Assembly: GCA_964594455.1 (NCBI GenBank) | Contig: CAZQLY010000001.1 | Coordinates: forward strand, 133,989-197,988 | Length of the DNA: 64,000 bases | Reading direction: 5' to 3' | Origin: an uncultured Gammaproteobacteria bacterium | Lineage (GTDB): Bacteria > Patescibacteriota > Patescibacteriia > JAHIZJ01 | Part shown: positions 8,538 through 54,040 of the stretch, in pieces | How positions within the stretch are numbered: the stretch's first letter is position 1 | Layout of the letters: each line of letters opens with the position of its first letter | Position numbers and translations under genes: made by a program | The notes under the pieces: model-generated | What the model saw: only the letters and a program-made list of their open reading frames with translations | Database searches by the model: none | What the model was told of the DNA's origin: nothing

Positions 8538-8602
8538 AACACCTCCTATTGATGGTTTATTGACAAATCTGCGTTTACAAAGAACAAAAAAGCACTGTAA
8601 TA

Positions 8603-8631
8603 ATTTATACATAAATCAGTAATATGTCAAA
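8603..8631 (-). promoter_or_regulatory. Sigma70-like promoter for hutU (minus strand: TTGACA, 17 nt, TAAATT)
   Basis: Reverse complement reads tttgacatattactgatttatgtataaatt, about 65 nt upstream of the hutU start. Confidence 0.45.
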
Positions 8632-22861: not shown

Positions 22862-23959
22862 ATGAAGACTATGAGTATTTTTCTGTGTCTTCTGGTGGTC
22901 GCATTCAGCGCTTCGGCTGAAACGATCCGAGTGCCGGATCAGTATGCGACCATCCAGGCGGCTGTCGAGTCCGCACAACCCGGTGACGAAGTCCAAGTGG
23001 CGGCTGGAACGTACAACGACTGCACTCATCAATCAGTCAATGAGGCGGGCGCTGAGATGATGAACTGCGTAATAATGAAGAGCGGTGTCTCGCTGATCGG
23101 CGCTGGTTCCGAGAGTACCATCATTGATGCTCAAGGACTGGGTCGGGTCATCTTGGCTGATTCTTGTGCAGCCGGAACCAGGATCGAAGGCTTCACCCTG
23201 ACTGGAGGACACCTGGAAGGGAGTAAAAACGGTGCTGGTTTGAACTGCTACTGGTCGGCGGTTGAGTGCTCTGACCTGACCTTTGTTGAGAATGGAACAG
23301 AGGGTAATGGCGGCGGAGTCTCCATCTTCATGGGTGCGAATCGAATGACTGACTGTTTCTTCAACGGTAACTATGTTTTGATCGGATACGGAGGTGCTAT
23401 CCACTGTGTCAGTTCAAGCAGCGAGTTTGAGCGGTGCCGTGTTACTGGAAGCAGCGGCTACAACGGTACAGTGGTCTGTGACCAGAGTGATGGAGCTCCG
23501 ACTTTCAAATACTGCCTCTTTGATCACAACCAGAGTCACCGCGGTGTGGTCTGGACCGGCAATGAGAGCCAAGCCAGATTCGAACACTGTACTATTTCCG
23601 ACAGCGAAGGAGAGTCATTCTATACTAATTCCGAAGGGGCATCGCTATATTGCTGCATATTGGCATTCGGTAGTAGAGTGGCAATGATCTGTGACGAGGG
23701 TACAACATTTGAGTGCTGTGATGTCTACGGACATCAGTACAATGACACGAATAAAGGCACCGACCTCGGCGGATGTTTTTCTGAAGATCCCGAGTTTGTC
23801 AGCCGGGAGTCCGGGGACTACTACCTTCAGCCCAGCTCTCCATGCCAGCCCGGCAACCACTCTGGCGGCTGCAACGACGTTGTGATCGGCGCGTTTCCGC
23901 CCGATGACACGCCTGTCCAGAGATGTTCCTGGGGCATGATCAAGGCGTCATTTCGATAA
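22862..23959 (+). CDS. Secreted right-handed beta-helix (pectin-lyase-fold) protein with a Cys-rich C-terminus (GC-rich islet)
   Basis: Signal peptide ...AFSASA; Gly/Asn/Thr-rich repeats typical of parallel beta-helix; AGGAGGT SD. Confidence 0.55.
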   Translation: MKTMSIFLCLLVVAFSASAETIRVPDQYATIQAAVESAQPGDEVQVAAGTYNDCTHQSVNEAGAEMMNCVIMKSGVSLIGAGSESTIIDAQGLGRVILADSCAAGTRIEGFTLTGGHLEGSKNGAGLNCYWSAVECSDLTFVENGTEGNGGGVSIFMGANRMTDCFFNGNYVLIGYGGAIHCVSSSSEFERCRVTGSSGYNGTVVCDQSDGAPTFKYCLFDHNQSHRGVVWTGNESQARFEHCTISDSEGESFYTNSEGASLYCCILAFGSRVAMICDEGTTFECCDVYGHQYNDTNKGTDLGGCFSEDPEFVSRESGDYYLQPSSPCQPGNHSGGCNDVVIGAFPPDDTPVQRCSWGMIKASFR

Positions 23960-25124: not shown

Positions 25125-25889
25125 ATGAAGAGGTTGAATGTTTTGTTATGGGTGATGCTGGCGGGGTTACTACTGGTGTCGTGCGGAGGTGATTCTGTCT
25201 CGAGCTGGACCAGGGCAATGTCCCAAGAAAACGCCGGCGAACACGAGAAGGCTTTGGCCAGAGCAACCAAGCTGGTTGAAGCTCGAATTGCACACATGGA
25301 CGGCGCTCTAGCGTCGAACTTGACCACCAGCCGGTATTTTGACCCTGAACGAGCGGCTGAGGACATCCTGAAGCTGAGCCGGAAGATCCACGACAACGAC
25401 GATTTGGCCAACAGTTTGGCTGCTCGAGGATTCCTCTTCTGCGTCATCGGCGAGTACAATCTGGGCGTTGCGGACTTTGAGCAGGCAATGAAAGCTGGAG
25501 AAGAGCCGGACTTGATGATGCTGGAGCCGCTGACTTCCGGAACCCTACACTTCTGTCATGCCATGGCACTCTGGCAGAAGGGAGAAAAGTCGCAAGCTCT
25601 GTCTGAACTAGAGTCCCTGACAGAGAAGGACGAGAAGTGCCACCAGGCCTGGTTTTATCAGGGAGTGATCAGAGATGAGTTGGGACAGCGTATTGATGCG
25701 ATCGGCAATATACAGTACGCTACTTATCTGAAATCAAGTCCTGTCTACAGCAATACCTTTGATTACTTGATGGGGAAGAGGACGGGCGAAGTGCCGTATT
25801 GCTCATTCCTGATTGCCTTTTTCAGCAACCGAGAACCGCTCAACCGGCCCTATGGCTACATCTGGCCCCTAGTCCAAGATACCAAATAA
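25125..25889 (+). CDS. Lipoprotein with TPR-like repeats (GC-rich islet)
   Basis: Lipobox LLLVSCGG; GGGAGGAG SD; helical repeat composition. Confidence 0.5.
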   Translation: MKRLNVLLWVMLAGLLLVSCGGDSVSSWTRAMSQENAGEHEKALARATKLVEARIAHMDGALASNLTTSRYFDPERAAEDILKLSRKIHDNDDLANSLAARGFLFCVIGEYNLGVADFEQAMKAGEEPDLMMLEPLTSGTLHFCHAMALWQKGEKSQALSELESLTEKDEKCHQAWFYQGVIRDELGQRIDAIGNIQYATYLKSSPVYSNTFDYLMGKRTGEVPYCSFLIAFFSNREPLNRPYGYIWPLVQDTK

Positions 25890-38654: not shown

Positions 38655-39194
38655 ATGGCAGAAAAAAAGTATTATCGTCCCAGCTGGGATGACTATTTCA
38701 TGGCTATTGCTCGAATTGTGGCCACTCGCGGAACATGTGACCGTTTAAGGGGTAGTGCAGTACTAGTTAAAAACAATCGCATCATTTCAACCGGCTACAA
38801 CGGCTCTCCTCCTGGTTTACCGCATTGTGATGATGTTGGTCATATGATGGAAGAGGGGCACTGTATTAGGACAATTCATGCCGAACACAATGCTCTGCTG
38901 CAGGCGGCTGTTATTCCCGGGGCGAGTACCGAGGGGTCAACGCTTTATGTAAAATATCTACCATGTGCGCATTGTTGTAAATATATTGTGGCTTGTGGTG
39001 TGAAAAGAGTGGTGTACGCGGACTTTTATAGAAACACAAAATCAGCAGATTACTTAGAGGAAGCTGGTCTAGAGGTAGACAAATATAAGAACAACAAGGT
39101 ATGGAATAAAAAAGCTCAAGAATTATTTGCTGAGGAAATAAAAGAGGTAAAAGCAGCTGAAGGATACGTGGTTATTAAAGACGGAGAAAAATGA
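38655..39194 (+). CDS. dCMP deaminase (ComEB/Dcd family cytidine/deoxycytidylate deaminase)
   Basis: Zinc-binding HAEHNAL and PCAHCC motifs; SD-less. Confidence 0.8.
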   Translation: MAEKKYYRPSWDDYFMAIARIVATRGTCDRLRGSAVLVKNNRIISTGYNGSPPGLPHCDDVGHMMEEGHCIRTIHAEHNALLQAAVIPGASTEGSTLYVKYLPCAHCCKYIVACGVKRVVYADFYRNTKSADYLEEAGLEVDKYKNNKVWNKKAQELFAEEIKEVKAAEGYVVIKDGEK

Positions 39195-39751
39195 TTATAG
39201 GATTAACCGGCTACACTGCCGCTGGCAAAGGTACGGTAGCTGAATTTTTAAAAGAGAAAGGGTTTGTCTATCATTCTTGTTCTGATGTTTTAAGAGAAGA
39301 AAACAAGAAATTGGGCCAGGAAAACACCATTGAGAATTTGATAACGCTGGGAAATAAACTGCGTGAAGAACAAGGACCCGGCGTGTTAGCAATAAGACTA
39401 TTAGAAAAAATAAAGGCTGAAAAAGAAGAATTATCCATAGTAGATAGTTTAAGACACCCCGATGAAATCGCCACTCTGAGAGAAACAGGCGATTTTGTGC
39501 TATTTAGCGTTGATGCGCCTCTAGACCTCCGATACGAACGAACTCAATTGAGGAAGCGAGACGAGGATAAAATTGATTTTGAGGAATTCAAAAGACAAGA
39601 ACAATTCCAAATTACCGGCAAAGGCAGTCAAGCCCAGATTCTGAACTGTATCAAGCTAGCTGATTACAACATAGTTAACGATGGAACCATTGAAGAACTG
39701 AAACTAAAAGTTGATGTTTTAATTGACGAACTCGGCATCAAAAAAGAATAG
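39191..39751 (+). CDS. P-loop nucleotide/nucleoside kinase-like protein (CoaE/dNMP-kinase fold)
   Basis: Walker A GLTGYTAAGKGTV; about 186 aa; 4-nt overlap with the deaminase gene. Confidence 0.45.
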   Translation: MIIGLTGYTAAGKGTVAEFLKEKGFVYHSCSDVLREENKKLGQENTIENLITLGNKLREEQGPGVLAIRLLEKIKAEKEELSIVDSLRHPDEIATLRETGDFVLFSVDAPLDLRYERTQLRKRDEDKIDFEEFKRQEQFQITGKGSQAQILNCIKLADYNIVNDGTIEELKLKVDVLIDELGIKKE

Positions 39752-39765
39752 TAAATAAAATACCC

Positions 39766-40413
39766 ATGCCCGCCCCAAAGTATTTAAAGGACAAAGATCC
39801 TTGGATGTTGGCCGAGGATATTCCTGATATGGATTTTGCCTTTGGGCAGATTTGGTTATCCTGTTTTGTAAATGAATTTGCTAAACCAGCCGGCCGTGCT
39901 TATAAAAAAATATTGGCAATTTTTAAAGGTTACCACTTGTGGTTTTATTATGGTGAAAAAGATTCAAACCGAGTAGGTGAGCACATAGTAAAAAAGTTCT
40001 GTGTTTATTATGCAGAGAAAGGCGTGGATAAAGTTTTCTTAAGAAAACAAGCCAAAGAATTGGCACAGCAAACACAACGTGATATTGGCGCAGAAGCCGA
40101 AATATCTGGACAGACGGGTTGTGTTGGCCGAGCTATTGGTGTAGTAAAGAAGATATTTCGTCCAGAAGGTATGGGCAAGATGAAAAAAGGCGATATACTC
40201 GTTTCCATAGCCACTGATCCAGATATAGTTCCAGCTATGAAAAAGGCCGCCGCCATCGTTACTGAACAAGGAGGAGTCACTTCGCACGCCGCTATCGTTT
40301 CTCGCGAAATGAACATACCTTGCGTGATTGGCACAAAAATTGCCACCAAAGTTTTGAATGATGGCGATAAAGTTGAAGTTGATGCCAATAAGGGTATTGT
40401 AAGGAAAATATGA
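39766..40413 (+). CDS. PEP-utilizer phosphohistidine (swivel) domain protein, paralog 1 (short N-terminal domain)
   Basis: C-terminal GDILVS..TDPDIVPAMKKAAAIVTEQGGVTSHAAIVSREMNIPCVIGT...VEVDANKGIVRKI: PF00391-type mobile domain with the catalytic His in GG.TSHAAI. Confidence 0.7.
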   Translation: MPAPKYLKDKDPWMLAEDIPDMDFAFGQIWLSCFVNEFAKPAGRAYKKILAIFKGYHLWFYYGEKDSNRVGEHIVKKFCVYYAEKGVDKVFLRKQAKELAQQTQRDIGAEAEISGQTGCVGRAIGVVKKIFRPEGMGKMKKGDILVSIATDPDIVPAMKKAAAIVTEQGGVTSHAAIVSREMNIPCVIGTKIATKVLNDGDKVEVDANKGIVRKI

Positions 40414-41432
40414 AGCTAGAATACGAAAAGCACCAGAGGAATTATACACTCCTGGCTGTGTCTTTGGTTATGGAAGAAATGATGAAAAGCCAACATTCCA
40501 AACTTTTTATCAATCCTTCGCAACCCATGTATATATATGTAAAAAACGGAGTGCTTTATCATTTTATCTCGGTGGCTAATTACTATAGTTGGACTGATCA
40601 GTGGATTAAAAAATATGATTATAAAAAAATAAAGAAGCTTTTTGATAAAAGAATAACTCAGCTCTTGGAATTCCATAAATATATTAAAAGAGATAAGCTT
40701 GATTTAGTACAGGCTGTAGATAAAATAAGTTGGTATATACTTGAGTTGCTGGACATTATAATGTTAGCCGCTTATTTGAAAGTTTATTCTACCGTGGACG
40801 ACAAAAAAACTAAAAAAATTTTAAACAAAGCCCGGCGGGAATTTGAATCTGTCCATAGGGTGGCGATAGATTTTCAGGCAAAACTGCTTAATAAAATTGA
40901 AAAAGAGAAAAATATTAAAAAGGGTAGTTTGTCCCATCTATCGATTGAGGAATATCGACGCTGGCTAAAAACTAAAAAACTTCCCTTAGGTGCATCAGCT
41001 CGCAATAAATTTTTAATGCTAGAACACTCAGGTAAGGGTGAGAGAATTTTGAACAACAAACAAGCTAAGGATCTATTAAGGAAAATAGACACCCGCGTTA
41101 ATAATAAAAATGTTAAATCAGCCAAAGGCATGTCTGCTTACCAGGGAGTCGTTAAGGGGAAAACCAAAATAATCATGGTTTTGAATCAGATACCTAAGTT
41201 TAAAAAAGATGAAATACTGGTTACTCCAATGACTGATCCACGCTACTTACCGGCCATGAAAAAAGCCTCAGCTATAGTGACTGACGAAGGTGGTGTTACT
41301 TGTCATGCTGCCATTGTAGCTCGAGAGTTAAAAAAACCATGCGTGATCGGAACAAAAATATCAACTCAAGTCTTCAAAAACGGTGACCGAGTTGAGGTTG
41401 ATGCTAACAAGGGTATTATTAGAAAAATATGA
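40410..41432 (+). CDS. PEP-utilizer phosphohistidine (swivel) domain protein, paralog 2
   Basis: C-terminal DEILVTPMTDPRYLPAMKKASAIVTDEGGVTCHAAIVARELKKPCVIGT; N-terminal about 250 aa K/N-rich helical domain unrelated to ATP-grasp. Confidence 0.7.
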   Translation: MKLEYEKHQRNYTLLAVSLVMEEMMKSQHSKLFINPSQPMYIYVKNGVLYHFISVANYYSWTDQWIKKYDYKKIKKLFDKRITQLLEFHKYIKRDKLDLVQAVDKISWYILELLDIIMLAAYLKVYSTVDDKKTKKILNKARREFESVHRVAIDFQAKLLNKIEKEKNIKKGSLSHLSIEEYRRWLKTKKLPLGASARNKFLMLEHSGKGERILNNKQAKDLLRKIDTRVNNKNVKSAKGMSAYQGVVKGKTKIIMVLNQIPKFKKDEILVTPMTDPRYLPAMKKASAIVTDEGGVTCHAAIVARELKKPCVIGTKISTQVFKNGDRVEVDANKGIIRKI

Positions 41433-42031
41433 AGTCTGAGATAAAGATAATTATTTTAGATGGGTACGGAATTATTCTGAGTCGGGGTTATCCTGACACC
41501 GTAAATTATTTGCATAAAAGATATAAGTTAGATAAGACTGAGCTACAAAAAGTTTTTTATAAAAAGTATTTTAATCTCGCAGCTGAAAGAAAAATAACTC
41601 AAAAGCAGGCCTGGCAAATACCAGTTGAGGAATTAGGTATTCCTATGACCTGGCAAGAAGTAAGAGCTTTGCACATGAGCCTATTTAGAATTAATAAGCC
41701 AGTTATGAAGTTAATCAACCAACTGCGAAATAAATATAAGGTTATCATGTTAAGCAAGAATACCAGATCTCAATTTGCTGATACCAAGAAGCTCTTTCCC
41801 AAGGTCTGGAAAAGTTTGGATGGAGTGATCAATACTTGGGAATTAAGCCTTCCCAAGGCCTCAAAAAGGACGATTTTGGAGATTTGTCGTCGATTTCGGG
41901 TAAAACCATCAGAAATAGTCTATGCTGACGATCAGAAGGTAAATTTGATTGAGCCAAAAAAAATGGGTGTTAAAACTATATTCTATAAATCATTCAAACA
42001 ATTCGATAGTGATTTGCGCAAATATTTATGA
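41429..42031 (+). CDS. HAD-superfamily hydrolase-like protein
   Basis: IIILDGYGIIL at the N-terminus (degenerate motif I) and K...VYADD motif III; embedded in the swivel-protein array. Confidence 0.45.
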   Translation: MKSEIKIIILDGYGIILSRGYPDTVNYLHKRYKLDKTELQKVFYKKYFNLAAERKITQKQAWQIPVEELGIPMTWQEVRALHMSLFRINKPVMKLINQLRNKYKVIMLSKNTRSQFADTKKLFPKVWKSLDGVINTWELSLPKASKRTILEICRRFRVKPSEIVYADDQKVNLIEPKKMGVKTIFYKSFKQFDSDLRKYL

Positions 42032-43509
42032 AAAGTAAAGCTCAATGGATAGAAACATCACGGCGAGGAAAGGCTCAACCACTTTTGGTTGTAGATGCTG
42101 TTATAGATTTGTATAAACAGAAATACTTTCAAAAAGCTCATAGAAGCAAATGGGGACCAAAGAACTATCGACAGTTTGATTCTGCTAGTTGGTTTGGAGT
42201 CAAGGATTACCAAGAATATCAAGACTTGCTGACGTTAGCAGCTGATAGTAAAGACCAGAAGTTATTGAAGTATGGTCGGGAGTACGAAAAAAGAATAATT
42301 GCTCACAGGACATTTGCTGACAAATATAGTAATTATGATTTTTACGGTCTTAGCAACAAAGAATTAAGAAAAATATTCAGTCAGTGGTTTGAGCTGACTA
42401 AGAGGTTTTGGTCATTTGCTTATGACTATATTTTTATCAACAAATTTCTACCTGACATAGTAACATCTGTAGTCGCCTCTAAGGTTCTAGATGTTAAAAA
42501 GCAGAATAAGTATCTAGGAATTCTGTTTGAAGCTGATGAACCCTCAGAGCTTAGACAGGAGAAAAAAAATTTATTGGAGATAGTGAAGTATATACGCAAC
42601 AAGAAAACAGACCTGAACAATGACATTGTTCATCGTAAATTGTCTAAACATTTAAATGAATATGCCCATCTAGGTTTTTACTATTTTAGAGGGTCATCAT
42701 ATAATTTATCCGACCTTAAAAAAAGAGTTAGTGAATACTTGAAAATAAATAGAATAGATTTTAATAAAATCGAATCAGATTTTAATAAACAGAACAAAAA
42801 TAATGCATTAGTCAAAGGAGTCATTAGAGAATTGAAACTTGATAAAAAAACTGTTGATTACATCAGATATATAAAACGTTGGGGTAGTTTATCAAACAAA
42901 GTTGACGAGACTTACGGTTACGTAGTTCACAAATGTTGGGGCCTCTGGCATGAAATCGCCAAGAGGTTTGGAATTTCTTATCAAGAATTTTATCATCTGA
43001 CCGGTACTGAAATAATTAAAAACTTAGATAGAGCTCAGCTTCCCCAGAAGTTAAAAAATAAAATTAAATTAAGACACAAAGATCATGCTCTAGTTTTAGA
43101 AAATAATAAGAAAAGCATTTATGTTGGCAATGAGCTGCGGAGCTACAGCTTGAGGGAAAAACAAGATAAAAGTTTTAACAAAAACGTAAAGGAATTGAAA
43201 GGCCAGCCAGTGTCACCGGGCCAAAAAAAGGGCAGAGTGATAATAGTACATACTGTGCATGATGTTAGAAAAGTGGAAAGAGGCGATATTATAGTAGCAA
43301 ATTCCACTAACCCTACCTATGTTCCGGCCATGGAGCGGGCTGGAGCCATAGTAACCGACGAAGGCGGATTGCTTTCTCATGCTGCTATAGTTTCCCGAGA
43401 ACTTAAGGTTCCTTGTGTTGTTGGCACAAAAATAGCTACCCGTGTTCTCAAAGATGGTGATATAATAAATGTGGATGCTGAAAAAGGAATTATTAAAATA
43501 GTTTCATAA
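42028..43509 (+). CDS. PEP-utilizer phosphohistidine (swivel) domain protein, paralog 3 (longest)
   Basis: C-terminal GDIIVANSTNPTYVPAMERAGAIVTDEGGLLSHAAIVSRELKVPCVVGT; about 400 aa novel N-terminal region. Confidence 0.7.
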   Translation: MKSKAQWIETSRRGKAQPLLVVDAVIDLYKQKYFQKAHRSKWGPKNYRQFDSASWFGVKDYQEYQDLLTLAADSKDQKLLKYGREYEKRIIAHRTFADKYSNYDFYGLSNKELRKIFSQWFELTKRFWSFAYDYIFINKFLPDIVTSVVASKVLDVKKQNKYLGILFEADEPSELRQEKKNLLEIVKYIRNKKTDLNNDIVHRKLSKHLNEYAHLGFYYFRGSSYNLSDLKKRVSEYLKINRIDFNKIESDFNKQNKNNALVKGVIRELKLDKKTVDYIRYIKRWGSLSNKVDETYGYVVHKCWGLWHEIAKRFGISYQEFYHLTGTEIIKNLDRAQLPQKLKNKIKLRHKDHALVLENNKKSIYVGNELRSYSLREKQDKSFNKNVKELKGQPVSPGQKKGRVIIVHTVHDVRKVERGDIIVANSTNPTYVPAMERAGAIVTDEGGLLSHAAIVSRELKVPCVVGTKIATRVLKDGDIINVDAEKGIIKIVS

Positions 43510-43510
43510 T

Positions 43511-44587
43511 ATGGTCAAAAAAGTTATCTACGAAGCTCATCCGCGAGACTATACTATTGTTGGTATATCGGAAGTTGCTCGTCATTATTGTACTAGCGGC
43601 TGGAAAGAGTTTAATGGACAGTTATTGGATGAATTTATCAACGTAATTGAGAACGGGAAATATATTTACTATGTTGAAGAGGACGGGCTTAATAAAATCA
43701 GCCAAGCGTTTATTAGATATAGGTTAAACAAGAACAAAGTTGATTTGCTGGGCATGTGGAAGAGGTTTGATAAAATGGTCGATGATTATTTCTCTCTGAT
43801 AAAATTACCCTACAGCAAATATTCCAAATATATGCTGTTGGATTTTTATGATTATTATATTAAGCTTCTGGGTCCGGCCTACACTGGTGCTTATGCTTTG
43901 GAATATATTGATGAAGTCAAGCCCTCAATAAAAAAACAGTTTACCGGTATTGCAAAAAAATTTCGCGACAAAGGAGAACTTATTTACAAAGACGGAGAAA
44001 GCAGGTTCATTCCAAAATATTTGAAATGGCTGTCCAAAAAAGAGTTGCCACAATACACTCCAGAACTAATGCAGTACATTTCGTGTAATGAAATGAAAAC
44101 CTGGCTTTTAACAAATAAAGGTTTGCCCAGTCCAAAAGAATTAAGATCAAGAAAGAAATTATTTGTCTTGAAGTATTATCCTGATGATAAGTTCCAAATC
44201 ATGACAGGCCAAAAGGCAAAAAAATATCTTAATAACATCAGATTAATGGAGCGCAGTACCTCGGGTGTTAAAAAGATGACAGGCACAACCGGTTATCCCG
44301 GAGTGGTTAAAGGTGTTGTAAAGATTGTGCGCTATCAGCATGAGATGAAAGGATTTAAAAACGGGCAGGTGCTGGTTTCTCCCATGACTCAGCCCAGCTT
44401 TTTAACCGTCATGAAAAAGGCTTCAGCCTTTATCACGGAAGAAGGTGGAACGCTTAGCCACGCCGCTATTGTGGCTCGAGAATTAAAAAAGCCTTGCGTT
44501 TTGGGAACAAAAGTTGCTACTAAAGTATTGAGAAATGGAGATAGAGTGACGGTAAACGCCACTACCGGAACCGTAAACAAGTTGTAG
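43511..44587 (+). CDS. PEP-utilizer phosphohistidine (swivel) domain protein, paralog 4
   Basis: C-terminal GQVLVSPMTQPSFLTVMKKASAFITEEGGTLSHAAIVARELKKPCVLGT; its N-terminal region shares short blocks with paralog 2 (YLKWLSKKELP vs YRRWLKTKKLP; GYPGVVKG vs AYQGVVKG). Confidence 0.7.
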   Translation: MVKKVIYEAHPRDYTIVGISEVARHYCTSGWKEFNGQLLDEFINVIENGKYIYYVEEDGLNKISQAFIRYRLNKNKVDLLGMWKRFDKMVDDYFSLIKLPYSKYSKYMLLDFYDYYIKLLGPAYTGAYALEYIDEVKPSIKKQFTGIAKKFRDKGELIYKDGESRFIPKYLKWLSKKELPQYTPELMQYISCNEMKTWLLTNKGLPSPKELRSRKKLFVLKYYPDDKFQIMTGQKAKKYLNNIRLMERSTSGVKKMTGTTGYPGVVKGVVKIVRYQHEMKGFKNGQVLVSPMTQPSFLTVMKKASAFITEEGGTLSHAAIVARELKKPCVLGTKVATKVLRNGDRVTVNATTGTVNKL

Positions 44588-44636
44588 ATTTGCTTAGTCA
44601 GGTTTTAACGTATATAATCAAAAAAAGTTTAAAGAT

Positions 44637-45074
44637 ATGGACTATTTATACGGAGTAACAAATTACAGTTTCTTTGATTCTTATTGGGCGGCTATCCACT
44701 TTGGTTCTGGTTTGCTGATCGGCTTATTGATTATCTTGATTTTTAGAATGGTTGATAAAAAAAGGTATTTTGGGTTTGGGATGTCCTTATTGGTATTTTG
44801 GGAGATATTTGAGTTTTTTATTCGGATACTAAACGAGTATTTTCCTAAATCTGCAGAAAAGCTAACCTTCATACCCGAAACCATGTTTCAGTCAGAAAGC
44901 ATAATTAATATTCTTAGCGATTTAATACTGGGATATATCGGCTTGGCGATTATTTATTGGATATTTGTTCGTCAGTCCGGTCTCGATCCCGATAACACAG
45001 AATATTATGATAAAAGTAAAGATAAAACGCCTCCACCCAGAAATGCGCCCCCCGACATACGGACGACCGAATGA
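44637..45074 (+). CDS. Membrane protein, hypothetical
   Basis: 3-4 TM helices; its 3' end overlaps the dut start by about 70 nt in another frame, so the true extent is uncertain. Confidence 0.4.
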   Translation: MDYLYGVTNYSFFDSYWAAIHFGSGLLIGLLIILIFRMVDKKRYFGFGMSLLVFWEIFEFFIRILNEYFPKSAEKLTFIPETMFQSESIINILSDLILGYIGLAIIYWIFVRQSGLDPDNTEYYDKSKDKTPPPRNAPPDIRTTE

Positions 45075-45432
45075 TGCTGGTCTGGATATTTTTGCATGCG
45101 GTGATCACACACTAAAACCTGGTCGGAGGTATGCCATACCAACAGGTTTTGCTATCGAAATACCCAAAGGTTTCGCTGGCTTGGTTTGGGACAAAGGTGG
45201 CCCGGCTTTTAAGTATGGAATTCATTGTTTAGCTGGTGTACTGGATGCCGGATACCGAGGAGAGCTGAAAATTGTCCTTTTAAATACCAGCGACAAAGAG
45301 TACCAGATAAAACTTGGCGATAAATTGGCTCAATTATTGATTCAGTCGGTAGAATCAGTTAAAATAGAGGAAGTAGATATATTAAGCGATACCGAGCGTG
45401 GAGAAGGAAGATTTGGCAGCACCGGCCGGTAA
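45007..45432 (+). CDS. dut: dUTP diphosphatase
   Basis: MIKVKIKRLHPE start, AGLDI, GLVWDKGG, RGEGRFGSTG dUTPase motifs. Start chosen at ATG 45007 rather than the track's 44965. Confidence 0.8.
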   Translation: MIKVKIKRLHPEMRPPTYGRPNDAGLDIFACGDHTLKPGRRYAIPTGFAIEIPKGFAGLVWDKGGPAFKYGIHCLAGVLDAGYRGELKIVLLNTSDKEYQIKLGDKLAQLLIQSVESVKIEEVDILSDTERGEGRFGSTGR

Positions 45433-45441
45433 AAATCATCA

Positions 45442-47142
45442 ATGGCAAAATTTACCAAAGAAGAAATAAAATTATTAAAGAAATATATCACTAACCCTAC
45501 GGGTGATGTTTTTTGTATTACGGGACTAGAAGGAATGGTCGGAGCGGCTTACGCTCGGTACAGCCGGGCCAGGGGCGGTTTTCGAGAGGTTTTATTAAAC
45601 GAATTCATAAAAGAAGGCGTAGTTGATCCATTACACGCGGAAGAATTGATTCAGCGGGTATTAATCGCTTTTGGAGATGATTCGGTTGGTGAATTAGAAG
45701 GCGCTCATTTGTCAGTTGAGAATGTTTCAGTGTTAGGCACAAAAGAGATGGAAGAGTGTCGTATTGGCGGATCACCGATTGAGCAGTCAACCCGCTATGT
45801 TTTTTACGATCAAAAAAAAGATGATGGTGAACATAGATATTACCGAGACCCCAAGATTATGCAGTCGCAGCATGCCAAGGAGTATACTGAGACGATGGAT
45901 TTCTTTTTCCAAACCTACTGCGATTTGATTGAGCCGATGAAGAAGTATTATAAGAAACTTAAGTCTTTAAAATCTGCCGAGTACGATATCAAGGGTACTG
46001 GCAATAAACAGCACTTCGAAGAACTGACCAGCGAAGAAGACAAAAAAGCCTTCAAGATGACTTACTCAATGGACTTGAGAACTAGAGCTTGTGATGCTTT
46101 GCGCTATATTTTGCCGATAGCTACTCAAACAAATGTAGGCTGGTTTGGGAATGGAAGGTTTTATCAAGGAATGTTGTCTAGTCTATATTCTAGCCCCTTT
46201 ACCGAAACTCAAAACATCGCTAAATCTGCTCAAGAGGAATTAAACAAAGTTATACCAGCTTACGTGAAAAGAGCCAATAAAAATGATTATCAAACAACGA
46301 TTGATAAAGAGATGTATCAGTTGGCTAATGAAGTCACAAAAAAGTATGATATTTTACCGGGCGAGGAAGTCGGACTATTGGATTCCGGGGTACATTATAT
46401 ATCTCACAAGCTGGGAGATGGCTATATCACATTAGAAAAAGTAAGAAAAACAATCCAAGATCGTCATGACAACGTAACGATTGCCATGATGCTATACGCC
46501 TATTCGAAGCACCCGCTGAAACAGCTGGTTAATTATATAGTTCCAAATTTAACAGACGATCATAAGAAGCAGGTTATTAAAACATATGTAGGCAATCGAC
46601 GCACTCGACGCGATCGGCCATATCGGGCTTTAGAATCTGGTTATCCCTATACCTTTGATTTAGTAACTGACTTTGGTGTTTACAAGGATTTAATGAGACA
46701 CCGAATGACCTCACAGTTGCGCCAGAGGTTTTCACCATTATTGGGCTTTGTCGTGCCGGATGATATTAAGAAAGCTGGATTTGAAAAAGAGTTCTTAAAT
46801 TGCCACCAAAAGTCATCAGAGCTGTATAATAAACTCTTCAAAGAATTTCCCGACGAAGCATCATACGCCACCCTTCATGGTTCAAAAGTCCGCTGGCTGA
46901 TTGGTTTTAATGAGCGCGAGGCTTATCATCTTTTGGAACTAAGGACCACTCCCCAAGGACACACTGCATATAGAAAGATTGCCCAGCAAATGCATAAGAA
47001 AATAAAAGAAGTAAGCCAGTGGAGAGCTGATAACATGAAGTTTGTTGATTACAATGATTACCAATGGGCTAGAGCCGATTCCGAGGCACGGCAAAGGGTA
47101 AAAGAGCGTGAACTGGAAGAAAAGTTAAAGCATAAAAAATAG
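45442..47142 (+). CDS. thyX: Flavin-dependent thymidylate synthase ThyX, long form
   Basis: ThyX signature RHRMTS...S (RHR-x2-S) in the C-terminal half; at 566 aa it is about twice a canonical ThyX. Confidence 0.65.
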   Translation: MAKFTKEEIKLLKKYITNPTGDVFCITGLEGMVGAAYARYSRARGGFREVLLNEFIKEGVVDPLHAEELIQRVLIAFGDDSVGELEGAHLSVENVSVLGTKEMEECRIGGSPIEQSTRYVFYDQKKDDGEHRYYRDPKIMQSQHAKEYTETMDFFFQTYCDLIEPMKKYYKKLKSLKSAEYDIKGTGNKQHFEELTSEEDKKAFKMTYSMDLRTRACDALRYILPIATQTNVGWFGNGRFYQGMLSSLYSSPFTETQNIAKSAQEELNKVIPAYVKRANKNDYQTTIDKEMYQLANEVTKKYDILPGEEVGLLDSGVHYISHKLGDGYITLEKVRKTIQDRHDNVTIAMMLYAYSKHPLKQLVNYIVPNLTDDHKKQVIKTYVGNRRTRRDRPYRALESGYPYTFDLVTDFGVYKDLMRHRMTSQLRQRFSPLLGFVVPDDIKKAGFEKEFLNCHQKSSELYNKLFKEFPDEASYATLHGSKVRWLIGFNEREAYHLLELRTTPQGHTAYRKIAQQMHKKIKEVSQWRADNMKFVDYNDYQWARADSEARQRVKERELEEKLKHKK

Positions 47143-47176
47143 TCCGGACAAATCAAAACATCCGGCTGTTTTTTTA
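47143..47176 (+). terminator. Rho-independent terminator after thyX
   Basis: tccgga-caaatcaaaaca-tccgg then ttttttt. Confidence 0.65.
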
Positions 47177-47182
47177 TACACA

Positions 47183-47211
47183 TTGACACTACCTATTAAT
47201 TAAAATAAAAT
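47183..47211 (+). promoter_or_regulatory. Sigma70-like promoter (TTGACA, 17 nt, TAAAAT) for tdk
   Basis: ttgacactacctattaattaaaataaaat, followed by the 5'-UTR hairpin tgtgcg-gaggaa-cgcaca at 47213-47232. Confidence 0.5.
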
Positions 47212-47273
47212 CTGTGCGGAGGAACGCACATTATAGCCAAATCAGACATGAGAATAAAAGGAGGTGATTGGTT

Positions 47274-47915
47274 ATGGCTTGGGGCCCGAAAATAATCGTA
47301 GTCATCGGTTCAATGTATTCTGGTAAGACCGGTTTTCTTTTCCGTCTAGCGAGGCAACTTATCAGGATGAAGCGTCACGGCACAAATATTCCGTTTGTGT
47401 GGTTAAGGCCATCTATCGATACACGCGATGGAGACCAGAGTATGATCGTAACTCGCAACAGGGAAGTGTTGGAAGGCGTGGAAGCCATCATCTTTCGGGC
47501 CAGTCGACCCAGCGATATCCTGCGTCATCCGCAAGTGAGAGAGGCTAAGCTGGTTTTCATCGACGAATTGCAGTTTGCCGGCGCTCGACTTTATCGCACC
47601 GTGATAAAACTTCATGAGATGGGAAAACGAGTGATTCTTGCTGGGCTAGACATCGACCACATGGGTAGACCATTTGATACCACCGCCCGGGTTGCGCTAA
47701 TACCCGAAGCTAAAGTATTCAAATTGCGTGATGGCGTTTGCATCAGATGCGGTGCAGTAGCTACGCATTCGCTGCGATTGATAGATGGTATACCCGCACC
47801 AGCAGACTCTCCCAGATTTATGGTTCAAGGTCAAGAAAAGGTTGATTACGAACCCGTATGTAGGAGGTGTCAGATAGGGGCATATGATAAAGCCGGCATT
47901 AGTTTCTTCTTCTAG
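47274..47915 (+). CDS. tdk: Thymidine kinase (GC-rich islet)
   Basis: P-loop GSMYSGKTG, C-terminal zinc ribbon (CIRCG...CRRC); AAGGAGGTG SD 9 nt upstream of the ATG (the track's TTG at 47268 is too close to the SD). Confidence 0.8.
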   Translation: MAWGPKIIVVIGSMYSGKTGFLFRLARQLIRMKRHGTNIPFVWLRPSIDTRDGDQSMIVTRNREVLEGVEAIIFRASRPSDILRHPQVREAKLVFIDELQFAGARLYRTVIKLHEMGKRVILAGLDIDHMGRPFDTTARVALIPEAKVFKLRDGVCIRCGAVATHSLRLIDGIPAPADSPRFMVQGQEKVDYEPVCRRCQIGAYDKAGISFFF

Positions 47916-47968
47916 CCTTAGCCTTCAGCTCACTAGAGTGAAGGCTTTTTTTATGGTAAAATAATGGC

Positions 47969-48403
47969 ATGAATTACTTACTAACATTTGCCTGGATTGT
48001 AGTCACATTTGCCTCAATTTCTTTCTGGGAGGCTTATATTGAGGGCCATCATGGAGGAGCTTCCAAGCAGGTGGGCTGGGTCTGGAACATATTTGGATTG
48101 AGATTAACAGGCTATCATGTGATGCTCTTCGGGGTAACTATTCCGCTTTTTCTGCTGATGCCTTTTATCGCTTATGGTTATGACGGCAAATTACTAGTTA
48201 CAGTTGTTATCGGATATTTGATTGGAATAGTAGTCGAAGATTTCTTGTGGTTCGTGGTTAATCCAGTTTACCCGCTAAGAGACTTCCGTCCAGAAAAAGT
48301 TTGGTGGTTCCCTTGGATTAAGTTAGGCAAGTTCAGGTTGCCGTTTTTCTACCCACTAGCAATTGTCATTGCCCTGGTTTTATACTTTTTATTTCTCAGA
48401 TAA
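47969..48403 (+). CDS. Membrane protein, hypothetical
   Basis: 4 TM helices, Trp/Phe-rich. Confidence 0.5.
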   Translation: MNYLLTFAWIVVTFASISFWEAYIEGHHGGASKQVGWVWNIFGLRLTGYHVMLFGVTIPLFLLMPFIAYGYDGKLLVTVVIGYLIGIVVEDFLWFVVNPVYPLRDFRPEKVWWFPWIKLGKFRLPFFYPLAIVIALVLYFLFLR

Positions 48404-48427
48404 AGTGTGTTAAAATTAGTTTGAATT

Positions 48428-49048
48428 ATGAAAAGAAACGGATATTTAATTGCCATTTACGGCATAAACAATTTAGGCAAGACCACTCAGGCAAAAAGAC
48501 TGGTGGATTTTTTGAATAAGAATGATTGGCCGGCTGAGTATGTGAAATACCCGGTTTATAGACAAAAGCCTTCCGGTCAGTATATTAATCAGATTCTCAG
48601 GAGAACGACTGAACAGCCGATCTCCGAGGAAGAATTTCAGATGTGGTATACTGTTAACCGTTTCCAATACGAGCCGGTGATAAAAAAGAAAATGGATAAT
48701 GGAAAAATCATCGTGGCTGAAGATTATATAGGGACTGGCTTAGCCTGGGGTGCCACAAAGGGGGCTAGCTTGGATTGGCTAGTCGAGATGAATGAACCTC
48801 TCCACAAAGAGGATTTGGCTATATTATTTGATGGTGAAAGATTTCCCGACGGCAAGGAAAAAAAACATCTACACGAGACAGACGATATATTAATGAAACG
48901 CTGTCGTCGCTGGCATCAGAAGTTAGCCGAAATGTACGGCTGGAAATTGGTAAACGCGAATCAAAAAGTAGATGAAGTCCATCAAGACGTCTTGGAGATC
49001 GTATCACAATTTTTGAGGAGTAAAGAAATATGGCAGAAAAAAAAGTAG
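48428..49048 (+). CDS. Thymidylate kinase-like dNMP kinase
   Basis: P-loop IAIYGINNLGKTTQ, DYIGTGLAWGATKG (like Tmk DRY..S..AYQ); divergent. Confidence 0.55.
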   Translation: MKRNGYLIAIYGINNLGKTTQAKRLVDFLNKNDWPAEYVKYPVYRQKPSGQYINQILRRTTEQPISEEEFQMWYTVNRFQYEPVIKKKMDNGKIIVAEDYIGTGLAWGATKGASLDWLVEMNEPLHKEDLAILFDGERFPDGKEKKHLHETDDILMKRCRRWHQKLAEMYGWKLVNANQKVDEVHQDVLEIVSQFLRSKEIWQKKK

Positions 49049-52107: not shown

Positions 52108-52302
52108 ATGGGAGAAAGAGGATCAGACATAGAAAAATATAGAGAAGGGCAGTTTTCTGACAGCTTTGCAAGCGAGGAAGAGGAAAAAGATCCGGAAAAA
52201 CTGAAAGAAGCCACCAGAAGGCTTAAAGACAAAAGATTGGGTCGAAAACCGGACAGAAGTATTGAAATTCCGGATACAGAGGCTGGTAAGAAAGAATCAT
52301 AA
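52108..52302 (+). CDS. Small charged hypothetical protein
   Basis: 64 aa, highly charged (E/K/R/D); coding status uncertain. Confidence 0.3.
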   Translation: MGERGSDIEKYREGQFSDSFASEEEEKDPEKLKEATRRLKDKRLGRKPDRSIEIPDTEAGKKES

Positions 52303-52325
52303 ATATCTGTGGATAAAAACAGCAT

Positions 52326-52354
52326 TGACCGAATATCATTCAGGTGATATGCTC
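52326..52354 (+). promoter_or_regulatory. Sigma70-like promoter (TTGACC, 17 nt, TATGCT) upstream of the pyrBI leader
   Basis: ttgaccgaatatcattcaggtgatatgct. Confidence 0.4.
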
Positions 52355-52364
52355 TGTTTCAGAT

Positions 52365-52443
52365 ATGAATAACCACGGAATGAAACAAGTGAATAGGAGG
52401 GCTAAGGCCTGAGGAAATCCCCGGATGACGGGGAATTTTTTTT
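52365..52443 (+). promoter_or_regulatory. Putative attenuator: 15-codon leader ORF (MNNHGMKQVNRRAKA) followed by an intrinsic terminator hairpin (tccccg-gatga-cgggga, then T8) upstream of pyrBI
   Basis: The leader ORF ends 6 nt before a perfect 6-bp-stem hairpin and a U8 tract; pyrBI starts about 70 nt downstream. The architecture recalls the E. coli pyrBI attenuator; the leader has no obvious SD. Confidence 0.35.
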
Positions 52444-52513
52444 GGTCTGAAGCTCTGTGGTTATAGAATGTACGTTGATAATCGGGCATGAAAAACACGC
52501 AAGGAGGGGGTTG

Positions 52514-53992
52514 ATGAAACACGTAATCAGCGCGCAGGATTTCCGGGCTGACTGGGTTCAGGAGGTGCTGGAGCGAGCCACTTTCAATATCGAAACCTAC
52601 CGTAGTGGTGAGCCGAAGGGACACAAAAGCACCAAGGCGACAGTGTTCATTGCTGAGCCAAGCACCCGGACCAGCGGGTCCTATAGTGAGGCTGCCCGAC
52701 TGGCCGGCTGTGCCAGGGAGGGTATTTCTGGCGCCGATCTGACTTCATTGGTCAAAGGTGAAACTTTAGGAGCGACCGGTAGAATGTTCAGTGGCCAGAA
52801 CACAGCACTGCTGCCTATTCGCACTAGGATCGAAGGAGGAGCCAGGTGGCTGACCGAGATGTTCGCGATGGAGGGTTATGAATACCTGACCGCAGTTCAT
52901 AACTGCGGCGATGGATCCAACGAACATCCGACTCAAGCCTTGCTTGATCTGCTGACGATCCAGCAGAAATTGAATCGCTTAACAGACCTGAAGATCGGGT
53001 TTGTAGGTGATCTGAGGAACAGCCGGACGGTTCACTCATTGGTCGGGGTTCTCAGGCTTTTCACTGGCATCAAGATTGTCCTGGTGTCTTCACCATCAGT
53101 CAAACTGCCTGGGTGGTACACCGAAGGAATGGAGGTTGAGCAATCACAAGAGATTGAGGCGCTCCGTGGATGCGACGTTGTCTATGTCACGCGTGTCCAA
53201 GCAGAGCGTTTCGGTGGCAACAAGGTAGAGTATGAGCGTGTCCGGGGCCTGTATTCAATTGGCGTCAAGGAATTGGAGTTGATTGGTCCTAAGACTCAGA
53301 TAATGCATCCTCAGCCGATCAATCAGACTGACCGTGATATCGATCCGAGGATTTGGCGTCATCCGCAAGTGGTCATGGATTTTCAAGCTCAGATGGGAAT
53401 TCCAATGCGCATGGCTCTGATCGAATGGTCGTTGGCTCATATCAAGGACAGTGTTGTATCTGAAGCTCCTAAGCCAGGAATCGCTGTTTTGAGCGAGCGC
53501 TCAGCTGGCGAGGCCTTGCGGGCCAAGCATGCGAGGAATCAATACTTCACGCCAATTGAGCGGGGAACGGTTATCGATCACATTCCGCACGGCTTGGGCG
53601 CGAAGGTTGAAGCAGTATCTAACGCTGAAGCTAATAACGGCGATGGTGCTGTCCTGTTGCTCAAGAGACTCCGGACTCAAGGTGATCCTGGGACCAAGGA
53701 TGTGTTGGTAATCGAGGACGGATTCCTGTCTGATGCGGAGAAAGCAGCTATCTCGGTGATTGCACCAAGTGCGGTCTTCAACGAGATCAGAGAGGGACAA
53801 ATCATCAAGATGCGAGTCGAATCGGTTTCACAGATCGGCATCGGCAAGTGTCCCAATTCCAACTGCATTACCCAACAGGACATCGAAGCCGCACTGTATC
53901 CTGGTTTCAGTATCGTGATTGAAGACGGCGGACACATCAGACTGGTCTGCCGCTACTGCGAAAGACACTTCCATCGCGAGGAAGTGATCTAG
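52514..53992 (+). CDS. pyrBI: Aspartate carbamoyltransferase with fused catalytic (PyrB) and regulatory (PyrI) chains (GC-rich islet)
   Basis: PyrB motifs STRT (EPSTRTSGS), HPTQ (EHPTQALLD), HPQP; C-terminal about 160 aa with a PyrI-like allosteric domain and a 4-Cys zinc domain (CPNSNC...CRYC). Start at ATG 52514, 6 nt after AGGAGG. Confidence 0.8.
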   Translation: MKHVISAQDFRADWVQEVLERATFNIETYRSGEPKGHKSTKATVFIAEPSTRTSGSYSEAARLAGCAREGISGADLTSLVKGETLGATGRMFSGQNTALLPIRTRIEGGARWLTEMFAMEGYEYLTAVHNCGDGSNEHPTQALLDLLTIQQKLNRLTDLKIGFVGDLRNSRTVHSLVGVLRLFTGIKIVLVSSPSVKLPGWYTEGMEVEQSQEIEALRGCDVVYVTRVQAERFGGNKVEYERVRGLYSIGVKELELIGPKTQIMHPQPINQTDRDIDPRIWRHPQVVMDFQAQMGIPMRMALIEWSLAHIKDSVVSEAPKPGIAVLSERSAGEALRAKHARNQYFTPIERGTVIDHIPHGLGAKVEAVSNAEANNGDGAVLLLKRLRTQGDPGTKDVLVIEDGFLSDAEKAAISVIAPSAVFNEIREGQIIKMRVESVSQIGIGKCPNSNCITQQDIEAALYPGFSIVIEDGGHIRLVCRYCERHFHREEVI

Positions 53993-54008
53993 CATTTGTT
54001 CATTCATC

Positions 54009-54040
54009 GGGAGAAGTCATCTGACCTCTCCCTTTTTTTA
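54009..54040. terminator. Hairpin terminator between convergent pyrBI and miaA
   Basis: gggaga-agtcatctgacc-tctccc then ttttttt; the T-run overlaps the miaA stop. Confidence 0.6.

Follow-up and report, generated by a model that had tools for sequence, protein, structure and literature searches.

The enteric pyrBI leader carries a U-rich pause tract and an open reading frame (ORF) of 44 codons that runs through the terminator. In E. coli, a terminator that lies 5 bp past a stop codon loses most of its efficiency to the translating ribosome, going from about 90% to less than 10%, a principle used by pyrBI (PMC4824070). As far as the enzyme is concerned, a fused allosteric aspartate carbamoyltransferase (ATCase) of Thermotoga maritima was described in 1998 (Chen et al. 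1998, J Bacteriol 180:6389, as cited in PMC4581275 and PMC6022934), and class B ATCases are listed in reviews as "fused or unfused" (PMC4581275, PMC6022934). Here we analyse a pyrBI gene, coding for such a fused ATCase, together with its leader, in a 64,000-nucleotide stretch of contig CAZQLY010000001.1 (the window), which belongs to a bacterium from the radiation of candidate phyla (CPR). With somewhat more confidence than doubt, we propose that this gene lies behind a ribosome-occlusion attenuator of pyrimidine genes, set by the supply of CTP and UTP.

The feature spans 52308, the start of the TGTGGATAA box, to 54039, the end of the 3' terminator, and extends beyond the 52320-53992 of the initial annotation. 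The promoter, the 15-codon ORF and the hairpin followed by T8 were found as described there (Table 1), with the promoter about 150 nt upstream of the pyrBI start. From the geometry of the promoter, transcription would start at A52361, which would make the mini-ORF nearly leaderless. The mini-ORF has no Shine-Dalgarno (SD) motif, a condition which is not abnormal in a window where 38 of the 50 genes lack one, and its stop codon lies 5 nt before the terminator stem. The attenuator hairpin, of 6 bp and about -11.8 kcal/mol, was also picked up by the consensus scan. The TGTGGATAA box is present in two exact copies in the window; allowing up to one mismatch, 15 copies were found against 18 expected, that is, without enrichment. 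The pyrBI gene itself occupies 52514-53992 on the forward strand and codes for a product of 492 aa. The ORF list gives 52457-53992, from an upstream GTG, but we take the ATG at 52514 as the true start because it is preceded by the SD sequence AAGGAGGGGG and opens the MKH N-terminus common to all 14 of 14 fused homologues.

Table 1. Features of the pyrBI locus (window positions) and domains of its product (residue numbers).
Feature	Position	Strand	Details
TGTGGATAA box	52308..52316	+	DnaA-box consensus TTATCCACA, reverse-complemented; 8 bp before -35
Sigma-70-type promoter	52325..52353	+	-35 TTGACC 52325-30, 17-bp spacer, TG 52345-46, -10 TATGCT 52348-53; consensus scan
AGATATG	52361..52367	+	putative transcription start A52361 (8th base after -10); abuts the leader ATG
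Leader mini-ORF MNNHGMKQVNRRAKA	52365..52412	+	15 codons, ATG 52365, TGA 52410-12
GGAGG, SD-like, inside the mini-ORF	52396..52400	+	nucleotide-level conservation
Intrinsic terminator (candidate attenuator)	52418..52443	+	stem TCCCCG/CGGGGA 52418-52434, loop GATGA, T8 52436-52443
Attenuator-to-gene spacer	52444..52513	+	about 57 nt to SD AAGGAGGGGG (52501-52510)
pyrBI, catalytic (PyrB) part	52514..53428	+	aa 1-305; Pfam and solved-chain alignment
PyrB-PyrI linker	53429..53548	+	about 40 residues; no domain match, poor conservation in alignment
pyrBI, regulatory (PyrI) part and stop codon	53549..53992	+	Pfam and solved-chain alignment
pyrBI-unit terminator	54009..54039	+	GGGAGAAG...CCTCTCCC and T7; -14.2 kcal/mol; overlaps the 3' end of the convergent miaA
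OTCace_N (PF02729)	aa 2-151		68.6 bits, gathering score 29.9
OTCace (PF00185)	aa 158-305		54.5 bits, gathering score 29.4
PyrI (PF01948), allosteric domain	aa 346-432		48.4 bits
PyrI_C (PF02748), zinc domain	aa 442-491		41.7 bits

Orthologous loci found by protein homology provided, together with the window, five complete leaders (window, L001, L002, L004/5 and L025) and a truncated one (L026). The arrangement of promoter, mini-ORF and terminator is kept in the six closest orthologous loci, at protein identities of 55-69%, so that the attenuator-like leader proposed from the single sequence finds its ORF and hairpin again in the closest homologues. Specifically, all five complete leaders have an invariant TGTGGATAA, placed 6-8 bp 5' of the -35 element. 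The window, L001, L002, L004 and L025 further keep TTGAC, a spacer of 17 bp and a -10 element of the form TAnnnT, and the TTGAC-N31-AGATATG spacing is identical in four of the five leaders, being 2 nt shorter in L025. The mini-ORF has 15-16 codons in every complete leader, and its stop codon is placed 5-11 nt before the C-run, which corresponds to 0-7 nt before the stem, a distance that falls in all five within the E. coli range of ribosome repression (range from PMC4824070). The encoded peptides (MNNHGMKQVNRRAKA, MENSNQCKKKEAKKPE, MNKKRFNTIQRRQKA, MKRKRNKKMCGGKSLD and MVTNRKDKSSGGIIKV) are unconserved, and inside the ORF the sequences can hardly be aligned. By shuffling, an open frame with such a placement of the stop has a probability of 0.07-0.10 per sequence; the product of 3e-6 is indicative only, as the sequences are related.

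A GGAGG element is found in five of five pyrBI leaders, 18-22 nt before the C-run and in three different reading frames. The terminator is present in six of six leaders, with 91.7% of the stem cells paired and compensatory changes at two stem pairs (UA to AU, and GC to CG or GU). When the five leaders were folded with and without the 3' arm, only weak and non-conserved structures of -7 to -8 kcal/mol were obtained, with no antiterminator among them; the leader 5' of the hairpin is essentially unstructured, and in four of the five leaders (not in L025) the terminator has a small AGGC-loop-GCCU hairpin ahead of it. The base content of the mini-ORF in the pyrBI-type leaders is 43-54% A, 18-30% G, 11-16% U and 9-14% C. 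At L004/L005 the neighbouring upstream gene is transcribed divergently, and from the T-run to the SD sequence there are only about 25 nt, too few for a second promoter; there pyrBI can thus be reached only by read-through.

In the mechanism that we propose, the transcript would start nearly at the AUG of the 15-codon mini-ORF and, by default, polymerase would terminate at the T8 tract, leaving pyrBI off. The first ribosome to reach the end of the mini-ORF would cover the 5' arm (UCCCCG), the hairpin would not form, and polymerase would read through into pyrBI. The race between the two would most likely be decided by the speed of polymerase at the C-run and the U-tract, that is, by the CTP and UTP pools, so that low pyrimidine nucleotides would turn pyrBI on, with the PyrI domain adding feedback at the level of the enzyme. 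Occlusion by the ribosome is favoured because no competing antiterminator fold was found and because ORF length and stop position are maintained.

The same module was looked for elsewhere by scanning genome and metagenome collections for TGTGGATAA-N5-9-TTGAC-N29-33-AGATATG, a motif that chance should produce about 7 times in the genome collection; the CPR accounted for far more of the matches than its share. At L011 (JAJYIJ010000003.1), whose GatB is 46% identical to that of the window, gatB is followed by the motif and an ORF of nine codons, then by a T8-tailed hairpin, a DDAH/arginine-dihydrolase-like gene, carA and carB. At L030, L032 and L037, the order is gatB, the motif, an ORF of 12 codons that stops at the base of a terminator, and a gene for a phosphoribosyltransferase, referred to here as pyrE-like since its best NCBIfam match is pyrE with 70.7 bits, below the 106.8 cutoff; the leader peptide of L030 and L032 is rich in aromatic residues (MFWTYPKNYYQI). 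In addition, at L002, one of the pyrBI loci, the motif directly follows gatB. The carAB and the pyrE-like leaders share the geometry of a stop codon next to the terminator. One module, with a promoter of the form TGTGGATAA/TTGAC/N29-31/AGATATG, thus precedes, in the slot downstream of gatB, pyrimidine or carbamoyl-phosphate genes of three different kinds in as many lineages. The presence of carAB and pyrE-like genes under the module indicates that de novo pyrimidine genes exist in the CPR; 7% of Patescibacteria genomes have the de novo pathway, while 93% lack de novo nucleotide synthesis (bioRxiv 10.64898/2026.06.21.733656).

Other observations concern the promoter-leader as such, which is a general CPR type and not exclusive to pyrimidine genes. 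At L011 (2867-3661), a DDAH/arginine-dihydrolase-like amidinotransferase heads the leader-controlled carAB operon of a CPR metagenome-assembled genome, a hint that arginine breakdown may be tied to the provision of carbamoyl phosphate. At a set of Saccharibacteria and Vogelbacteria loci (L012, L017, L020, L021, L031, L033, L036, L043-L046, L049 and L053), the promoter gives rise to a conserved transcript some 190 nt long (e.g. L021 3318-3560), located between an xerD-like gene and cca and ending with a CCCTCCC...GGGAGGG hairpin and a T-run; it matches no Rfam family and may represent an undescribed CPR non-coding RNA. At L034/L035 (L034 787-843, minus strand), an ORF of 34 codons runs from AGATATG through the terminator CGCCGGAGACGGCG with T6 and stops just after the T-run, a leader with the geometry of that of E. 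coli pyrBI.

A number of other identities for the leader elements were considered and rejected. No Rfam family reached its gathering score on the window and none, PyrR RF00515 included, was found at E values up to 10 on 52250-52560; the leader was not retained as a PyrR element, a riboswitch or another known leader, the only weak Rfam matches (His_leader, asX2, NsiR1) being driven by the terminator. A second ORF, starting from CUG or GUG after GGAGG and running through the terminator, can be read in the window, L001 and L002, and was rejected because L004 and L025 lack it. Reiterative transcription at a T-run near the start site was set aside, as this T-run is unconserved in L011 and L032 and the initially transcribed AGAUAUG lacks a homopolymer. 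The hairpin does not serve merely to terminate an upstream operon, given the L004/L005 loci, at which the upstream neighbour is transcribed divergently and is separated from the hairpin by the promoter.

With regard to the enzyme, the four Pfam domains of ATCase were found in the pyrBI product, each above its gathering score (Table 1). This includes the two PyrI domains in the C-terminal region, so that Pfam searches and alignments to solved chains both substantiate the PyrB-PyrI fusion with an intact four-cysteine zinc site first read from the translation. Specifically, the PyrB half aligns over its full length to solved catalytic chains (2rgw_A, E=1.5e-43; 1ml4_A, E=2.6e-41), and the PyrI half aligns end to end to regulatory chains (1pg5_B, E=1.1e-19; the r chain of E. 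coli, 1d09_B, E=1.6e-15), where the GTVIDHIP nucleotide-site motif and the four zinc cysteines fall in register. The motifs STRT, HPTQ, HPQP, CPNSNC and CRYC are present, as are the catalytic residues (STRT, Lys84, Arg105, His134/Gln137 of HPTQ, Arg167, and Arg229/Gln231 of RxQxER). S50, T51, R52, T53, K81, R103, H138, Q141, R171, R227 and Q229 are invariant in a CPR clade of 15 members that diverge down to 37% identity, and so is the zinc site, whose C-x4-C and C-x2-C correspond by alignment to C109, C114, C138 and C141 of E. coli. The HPLP signature (Leu267) reads HPQP in the window protein, the position being Q, L or M across the clade; in E. coli ATCase the contact at this position is made through a backbone carbonyl, and the change may be tolerated. 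The protein scores 210.4 bits with the PyrB equivalog model TIGR00670, below the cutoff of 236.95, which the clade-B homologue P0011 passes at 240.5 bits; by these scores, the window protein is a divergent member of the ATCase family. In conclusion, the pyrBI product has the domains and the catalytic and zinc residues of a class-B-type fused ATCase, and probably is one.

The initial annotation regarded the fusion of two chains normally encoded by separate genes as out of the ordinary, a view that does not hold in the light of the Thermotoga enzyme, of an NCBIfam model for bifunctional PyrB/PyrI (NF009916) and of our searches. A word-indexed search returned 15 fused homologues, and those with a name are Patescibacteria or Kerfeldbacteria, in agreement with the CPR affiliation suspected at the outset. 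Genomes carrying this clade include GCA_016294925.1, GCA_028714495.1, GCA_018824475.1 and GCA_018814765.1. An exhaustive profile search gave 13,688 matches, and about 80 of the best 150 representatives (clusters at 50% identity) are full-length catalytic-regulatory fusions. The fused architecture is therefore known and widespread, not new, and the window protein is ordinary, though divergent. With NF009916 it scores 141.5 bits against the 800-bit equivalog cutoff, and the other fused metagenomic proteins tested, at 122-209 bits, are likewise below it. In a rough neighbour-joining tree, which cannot tell independent fusions from a single one, the CPR proteins form a clade of their own, apart from two other fused groups. 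A common origin with the Thermotoga-type fusion was not retained, as none of the fused proteins tested reaches NF009916 and the tree separates the three fused groups. Judged on these comparisons, the window enzyme appears to fall in a lineage-specific Patescibacteria clade, within an architecture for which Thermotoga had set the precedent. In the literature on ATCase in Patescibacteria, we found nothing specific to the fused clade or to its leader.

The window is a typical CPR stretch, with PheST, GyrB, NusG-L11-L1, UvrD, GatB, MiaA/B, ThrRS and DnaE. As initially annotated, it contains no other pyr gene: none of the approximately 50 ORFs scanned belongs to the de novo pathway, and no pyr neighbour was found at any of eight orthologous loci. 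The orphan status of pyrBI holds for these 64 kb out of a contig of 198,913 bp. Pyrimidine salvage genes are located near pyrBI (dCMP deaminase, ThyX, TK and Tmk), and the order ThyX-TK-Tmk-GatB-(SpeE-like)-PyrBI, followed by the convergent MiaA-MiaB-ThrRS-DnaE, is kept in the closest relatives. The GC-rich islet was likewise recovered, with pyrBI at a GC content of 0.527 (0.58 at third codon positions, GC3) and the flanking genes at 0.37-0.41. This contrast is repeated in L001, L004 and L025, while the clade-B orthologues reside in genomes of 61-63% GC and match their host in GC. An SD-like motif precedes 12 of the 50 window genes, and the eight genes with a strong SD, pyrBI included, are all among the GC-richer ones (0.43-0.53). 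Because of the GC contrast and of this distribution of SD motifs, the data point to an acquisition of pyrBI from a GC-richer, SD-using lineage, as far as composition can tell; such an acquisition leaves unexplained why GC3 is unameliorated among orthologues that are only 55-69% identical.

Several of these results weigh against the attenuator proposed above. We infer the start site, the translation of the mini-ORF and termination alike. The covariation in the stem is weak, with six sequences and 74 of 500 shuffles reaching the observed values. The pyrBI-type leaders carry no U-rich pause tract and have pyrimidine runs only in the terminator, so that the sensing of pyrimidines would fall only to its C4-5 run and U7-8 tract. 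The carAB and pyrE-like leaders differ in composition and in length (9 and 12 codons) and no sensing element common to them is visible, and the promoter motif also precedes non-pyrimidine targets, such as a flavodoxin-like gene. Moreover, the conservation of the leader, as seen in the six closest loci, stops short of clade B (L007, L008 and L027) and clade C (L029), whose orthologues, at 37-48% identity, have plain promoters and no terminator; the attenuator would thus be specific to the subclade of the window and not an obligatory partner of the enzyme. On the side of the protein, the PyrI equivalog model TIGR00240 gives 76.4 bits against a cutoff of 148.55, P0004 (L004-L006) has NVQP in place of HPxP, and P0006 (L002) has HVSQ and RVQEKR in its signature motifs; both retain every directly catalytic residue, and the changes may reflect a relaxed constraint in some lineages. 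Finally, two conserved elements, GGAGG in its three frames and the DnaA-box-like TGTGGATAA, are not explained by the mechanism. The latter could be the site of a factor, DnaA or another, through which control is exerted at the promoter, with the mini-ORF and the terminator acting as a constitutive, leaky damper or as a separate small transcription unit that yields a low level of pyrBI by read-through. The box is indeed invariant in the complete leaders and recurs with the same promoter before different genes in several CPR lineages, no sensing element is evident in the leader, and DnaA regulates nucleotide-supply genes, e.g. nrdAB, in E. coli. However, a constitutive terminator explains neither why the length of the mini-ORF and the distance from stop to stem are kept in five leaders while the peptide drifts, nor the stop-next-to-terminator geometry of the carAB and pyrE-like leaders, and we consider this account unlikely; control at the promoter and attenuation are, in any case, not mutually exclusive. 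An attenuator dependent on a factor or ligand, in the manner of PyrR or of a riboswitch for a pyrimidine metabolite, with an incidental ORF, has in its favour the PyrR-dependent attenuation of pyr operons in Firmicutes, the AGGC-loop-GCCU hairpin of four of the five leaders and a GGAGG kept regardless of frame. It is nevertheless very improbable in our judgement, since the RF00515 and other Rfam comparisons gave no match at E values up to 10, the 40 nt from AUG to GGAGG are unconserved and unstructured, with neither an aptamer-like fold nor an antiterminator, the small hairpin is absent in L025, and the conservation of the ORF would be left unexplained.

A different doubt regards the enzyme, which might not be a biosynthetic ATCase but the acquired remnant of a lost pathway, or might work in another direction or on another acceptor, for instance by releasing carbamoyl phosphate from carbamoyl-aspartate or by supplying carbamoyl-aspartate to a host. 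The isolation of the gene, in the window as well as at the eight orthologous loci, would fit such a role, as would the lack of de novo nucleotide synthesis in 93% of Patescibacteria genomes (bioRxiv 10.64898/2026.06.21.733656), the signature of foreign origin suggested by GC and SD, the replacement of HPLP by HPQP and the scores below equivalog cutoffs. Yet no catalytic or aspartate-binding residue varies across a clade reaching down to 37% identity, and the nucleotide-binding domain persists along with the zinc domain, which indicates purifying selection for a regulated ATCase; in related CPR lineages, the module is also found ahead of carAB and of a pyrE-like gene. A non-biosynthetic role thus appears rather improbable. 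A bolder extension of the ribosome-occlusion proposal, which we regard as quite speculative and improbable as it stands, would see in the locus a stand-alone pyrBI that remains transcriptionally and allosterically controlled in a bacterium living by salvage, as the cargo of an undescribed CPR-wide cassette downstream of gatB. This cassette would consist of the DnaA-box-like element, the promoter, the leaderless mini-ORF and the terminator, and would carry different single steps in each lineage (pyrBI, carAB, pyrE-like). If so, it would suggest either a pathway split between symbiont and host or a supply of nucleotides coupled to replication through DnaA.

Some further features of the window were recorded beside the locus. 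The nucleotide-salvage cluster (38655-49048) comprises a dCMP/cytidine deaminase, a P-loop kinase, an HAD hydrolase, an unusually long ThyX of 566 aa, TK, Tmk and four swivel-domain proteins, paralogues that end in a phosphoenolpyruvate (PEP)-utiliser mobile (phosphohistidine swivel) domain without the other domains of PEP synthase or PPDK. Between the SpeE-like gene and the pyrBI promoter lies an ORF of 64 aa with many charged residues and no Pfam match (52108-52302), which has an equivalent in L001 and, with 79 aa, in L025. At about 53992-54040, where pyrBI and miaA converge, gene orientation flips from plus to minus, an arrangement kept in L001, L002, L004 and L025; at the same place the AT skew changes sign and the GC skew passes from positive to about zero, resembling a replication terminus. 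The strong-SD genes start at 4000, 22862, 25125, 35546 (minus strand), 37959, 47268, 52514 and 54996, while the AT-rich majority of genes has A/T-rich upstream regions without an SD motif, which suggests that native and acquired genes form two populations that differ in their signals for translation initiation. Other GC-rich islets correspond to a urocanase (6492-8612, minus strand, GC 0.515), in whose vicinity no further gene of histidine utilisation was seen, an OPT oligopeptide transporter (18598-20394, minus strand, 0.541), a beta-helix protein (22862-23959, plus strand, 0.530) and a TPR protein (25125-25889, plus strand, 0.525), all of which may be further horizontally acquired single genes.

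All together, the fusion of the enzyme and the attenuator-like leader are both variants of known designs and not a new kind of system; the chief interest of the locus lies in the conserved leader cassette and in its reuse before carAB and a pyrE-like gene. CPR bacteria, or Patescibacteria, are thought to depend almost wholly on scavenged nucleotides, and their gene regulation is barely known. The pyrBI locus thus offers a concrete and testable candidate for a leader-peptide attenuator in this radiation. If confirmed, it would mean that transcription-translation coupling serves the control of metabolites in minimal bacteria, even on nearly leaderless transcripts and in a mostly SD-less genome, and it would single out the CPR lineages in which portions of de novo pyrimidine synthesis have been retained or regained.

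Compared with known enzymes, the window protein shares with the T. maritima ATCase, which is allosteric according to the work cited in PMC4581275 and PMC6022934, the build of a single chain in which a linker joins an N-terminal PyrB to a C-terminal PyrI made up of an allosteric and a zinc domain. In contrast to the Thermotoga/NF009916 type, the CPR proteins have an insertion of 5-7 residues before NxGDG and HPQP for HPLP. The archaeal and enterobacterial class B ATCases (2rgw, 1ml4, 1pg5 and 1d09) provide the best solved-structure matches for both halves, but there PyrB and PyrI are encoded by separate genes, and K60, T82 and Y89 of the nucleotide site (E. coli numbering) are not conserved in the PyrI part of the window protein.

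As for the leader, under PyrR attenuation in Bacillus (RF00515) pyrimidine genes likewise have a terminator in their 5' leader, while the window leader has no PyrR binding loop detectable by Rfam at E values up to 10. The trpL, hisL and pheL attenuators also rely on a short upstream ORF whose translation sets the formation of the terminator, and the aromatic-rich peptide of the pyrE-like leader in L030 and L032 even recalls them. However, they work through regulatory codons in runs and through a choice between antiterminator and terminator hairpins; the pyrBI-type leaders have neither. A close parallel is the E. coli/Salmonella pyrBI leader of Turnbough and co-workers which, in the account of Roland et al. 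1988 cited in PMC4824070, likewise has a sigma-70 promoter, a short ORF and a terminator upstream of the ATCase gene. As in E. coli, there is no antiterminator RNA, and read-through is expected to need a ribosome that blocks the hairpin. The likeness to the enteric attenuator noted at first sight is one of logic: there is no sequence relationship, the ORF has 15-16 codons instead of 44 and stops 0-7 nt before the stem, and the leader is purine-rich, without the U-rich, UTP-sensitive pause tract, so that the sensing of UTP could be drawn from enteric pyrBI by analogy only. In turn, the window-type leader adds to the E. coli design a nearly leaderless, SD-less mini-ORF, an internal GGAGG and the TGTGGATAA box upstream of the promoter.

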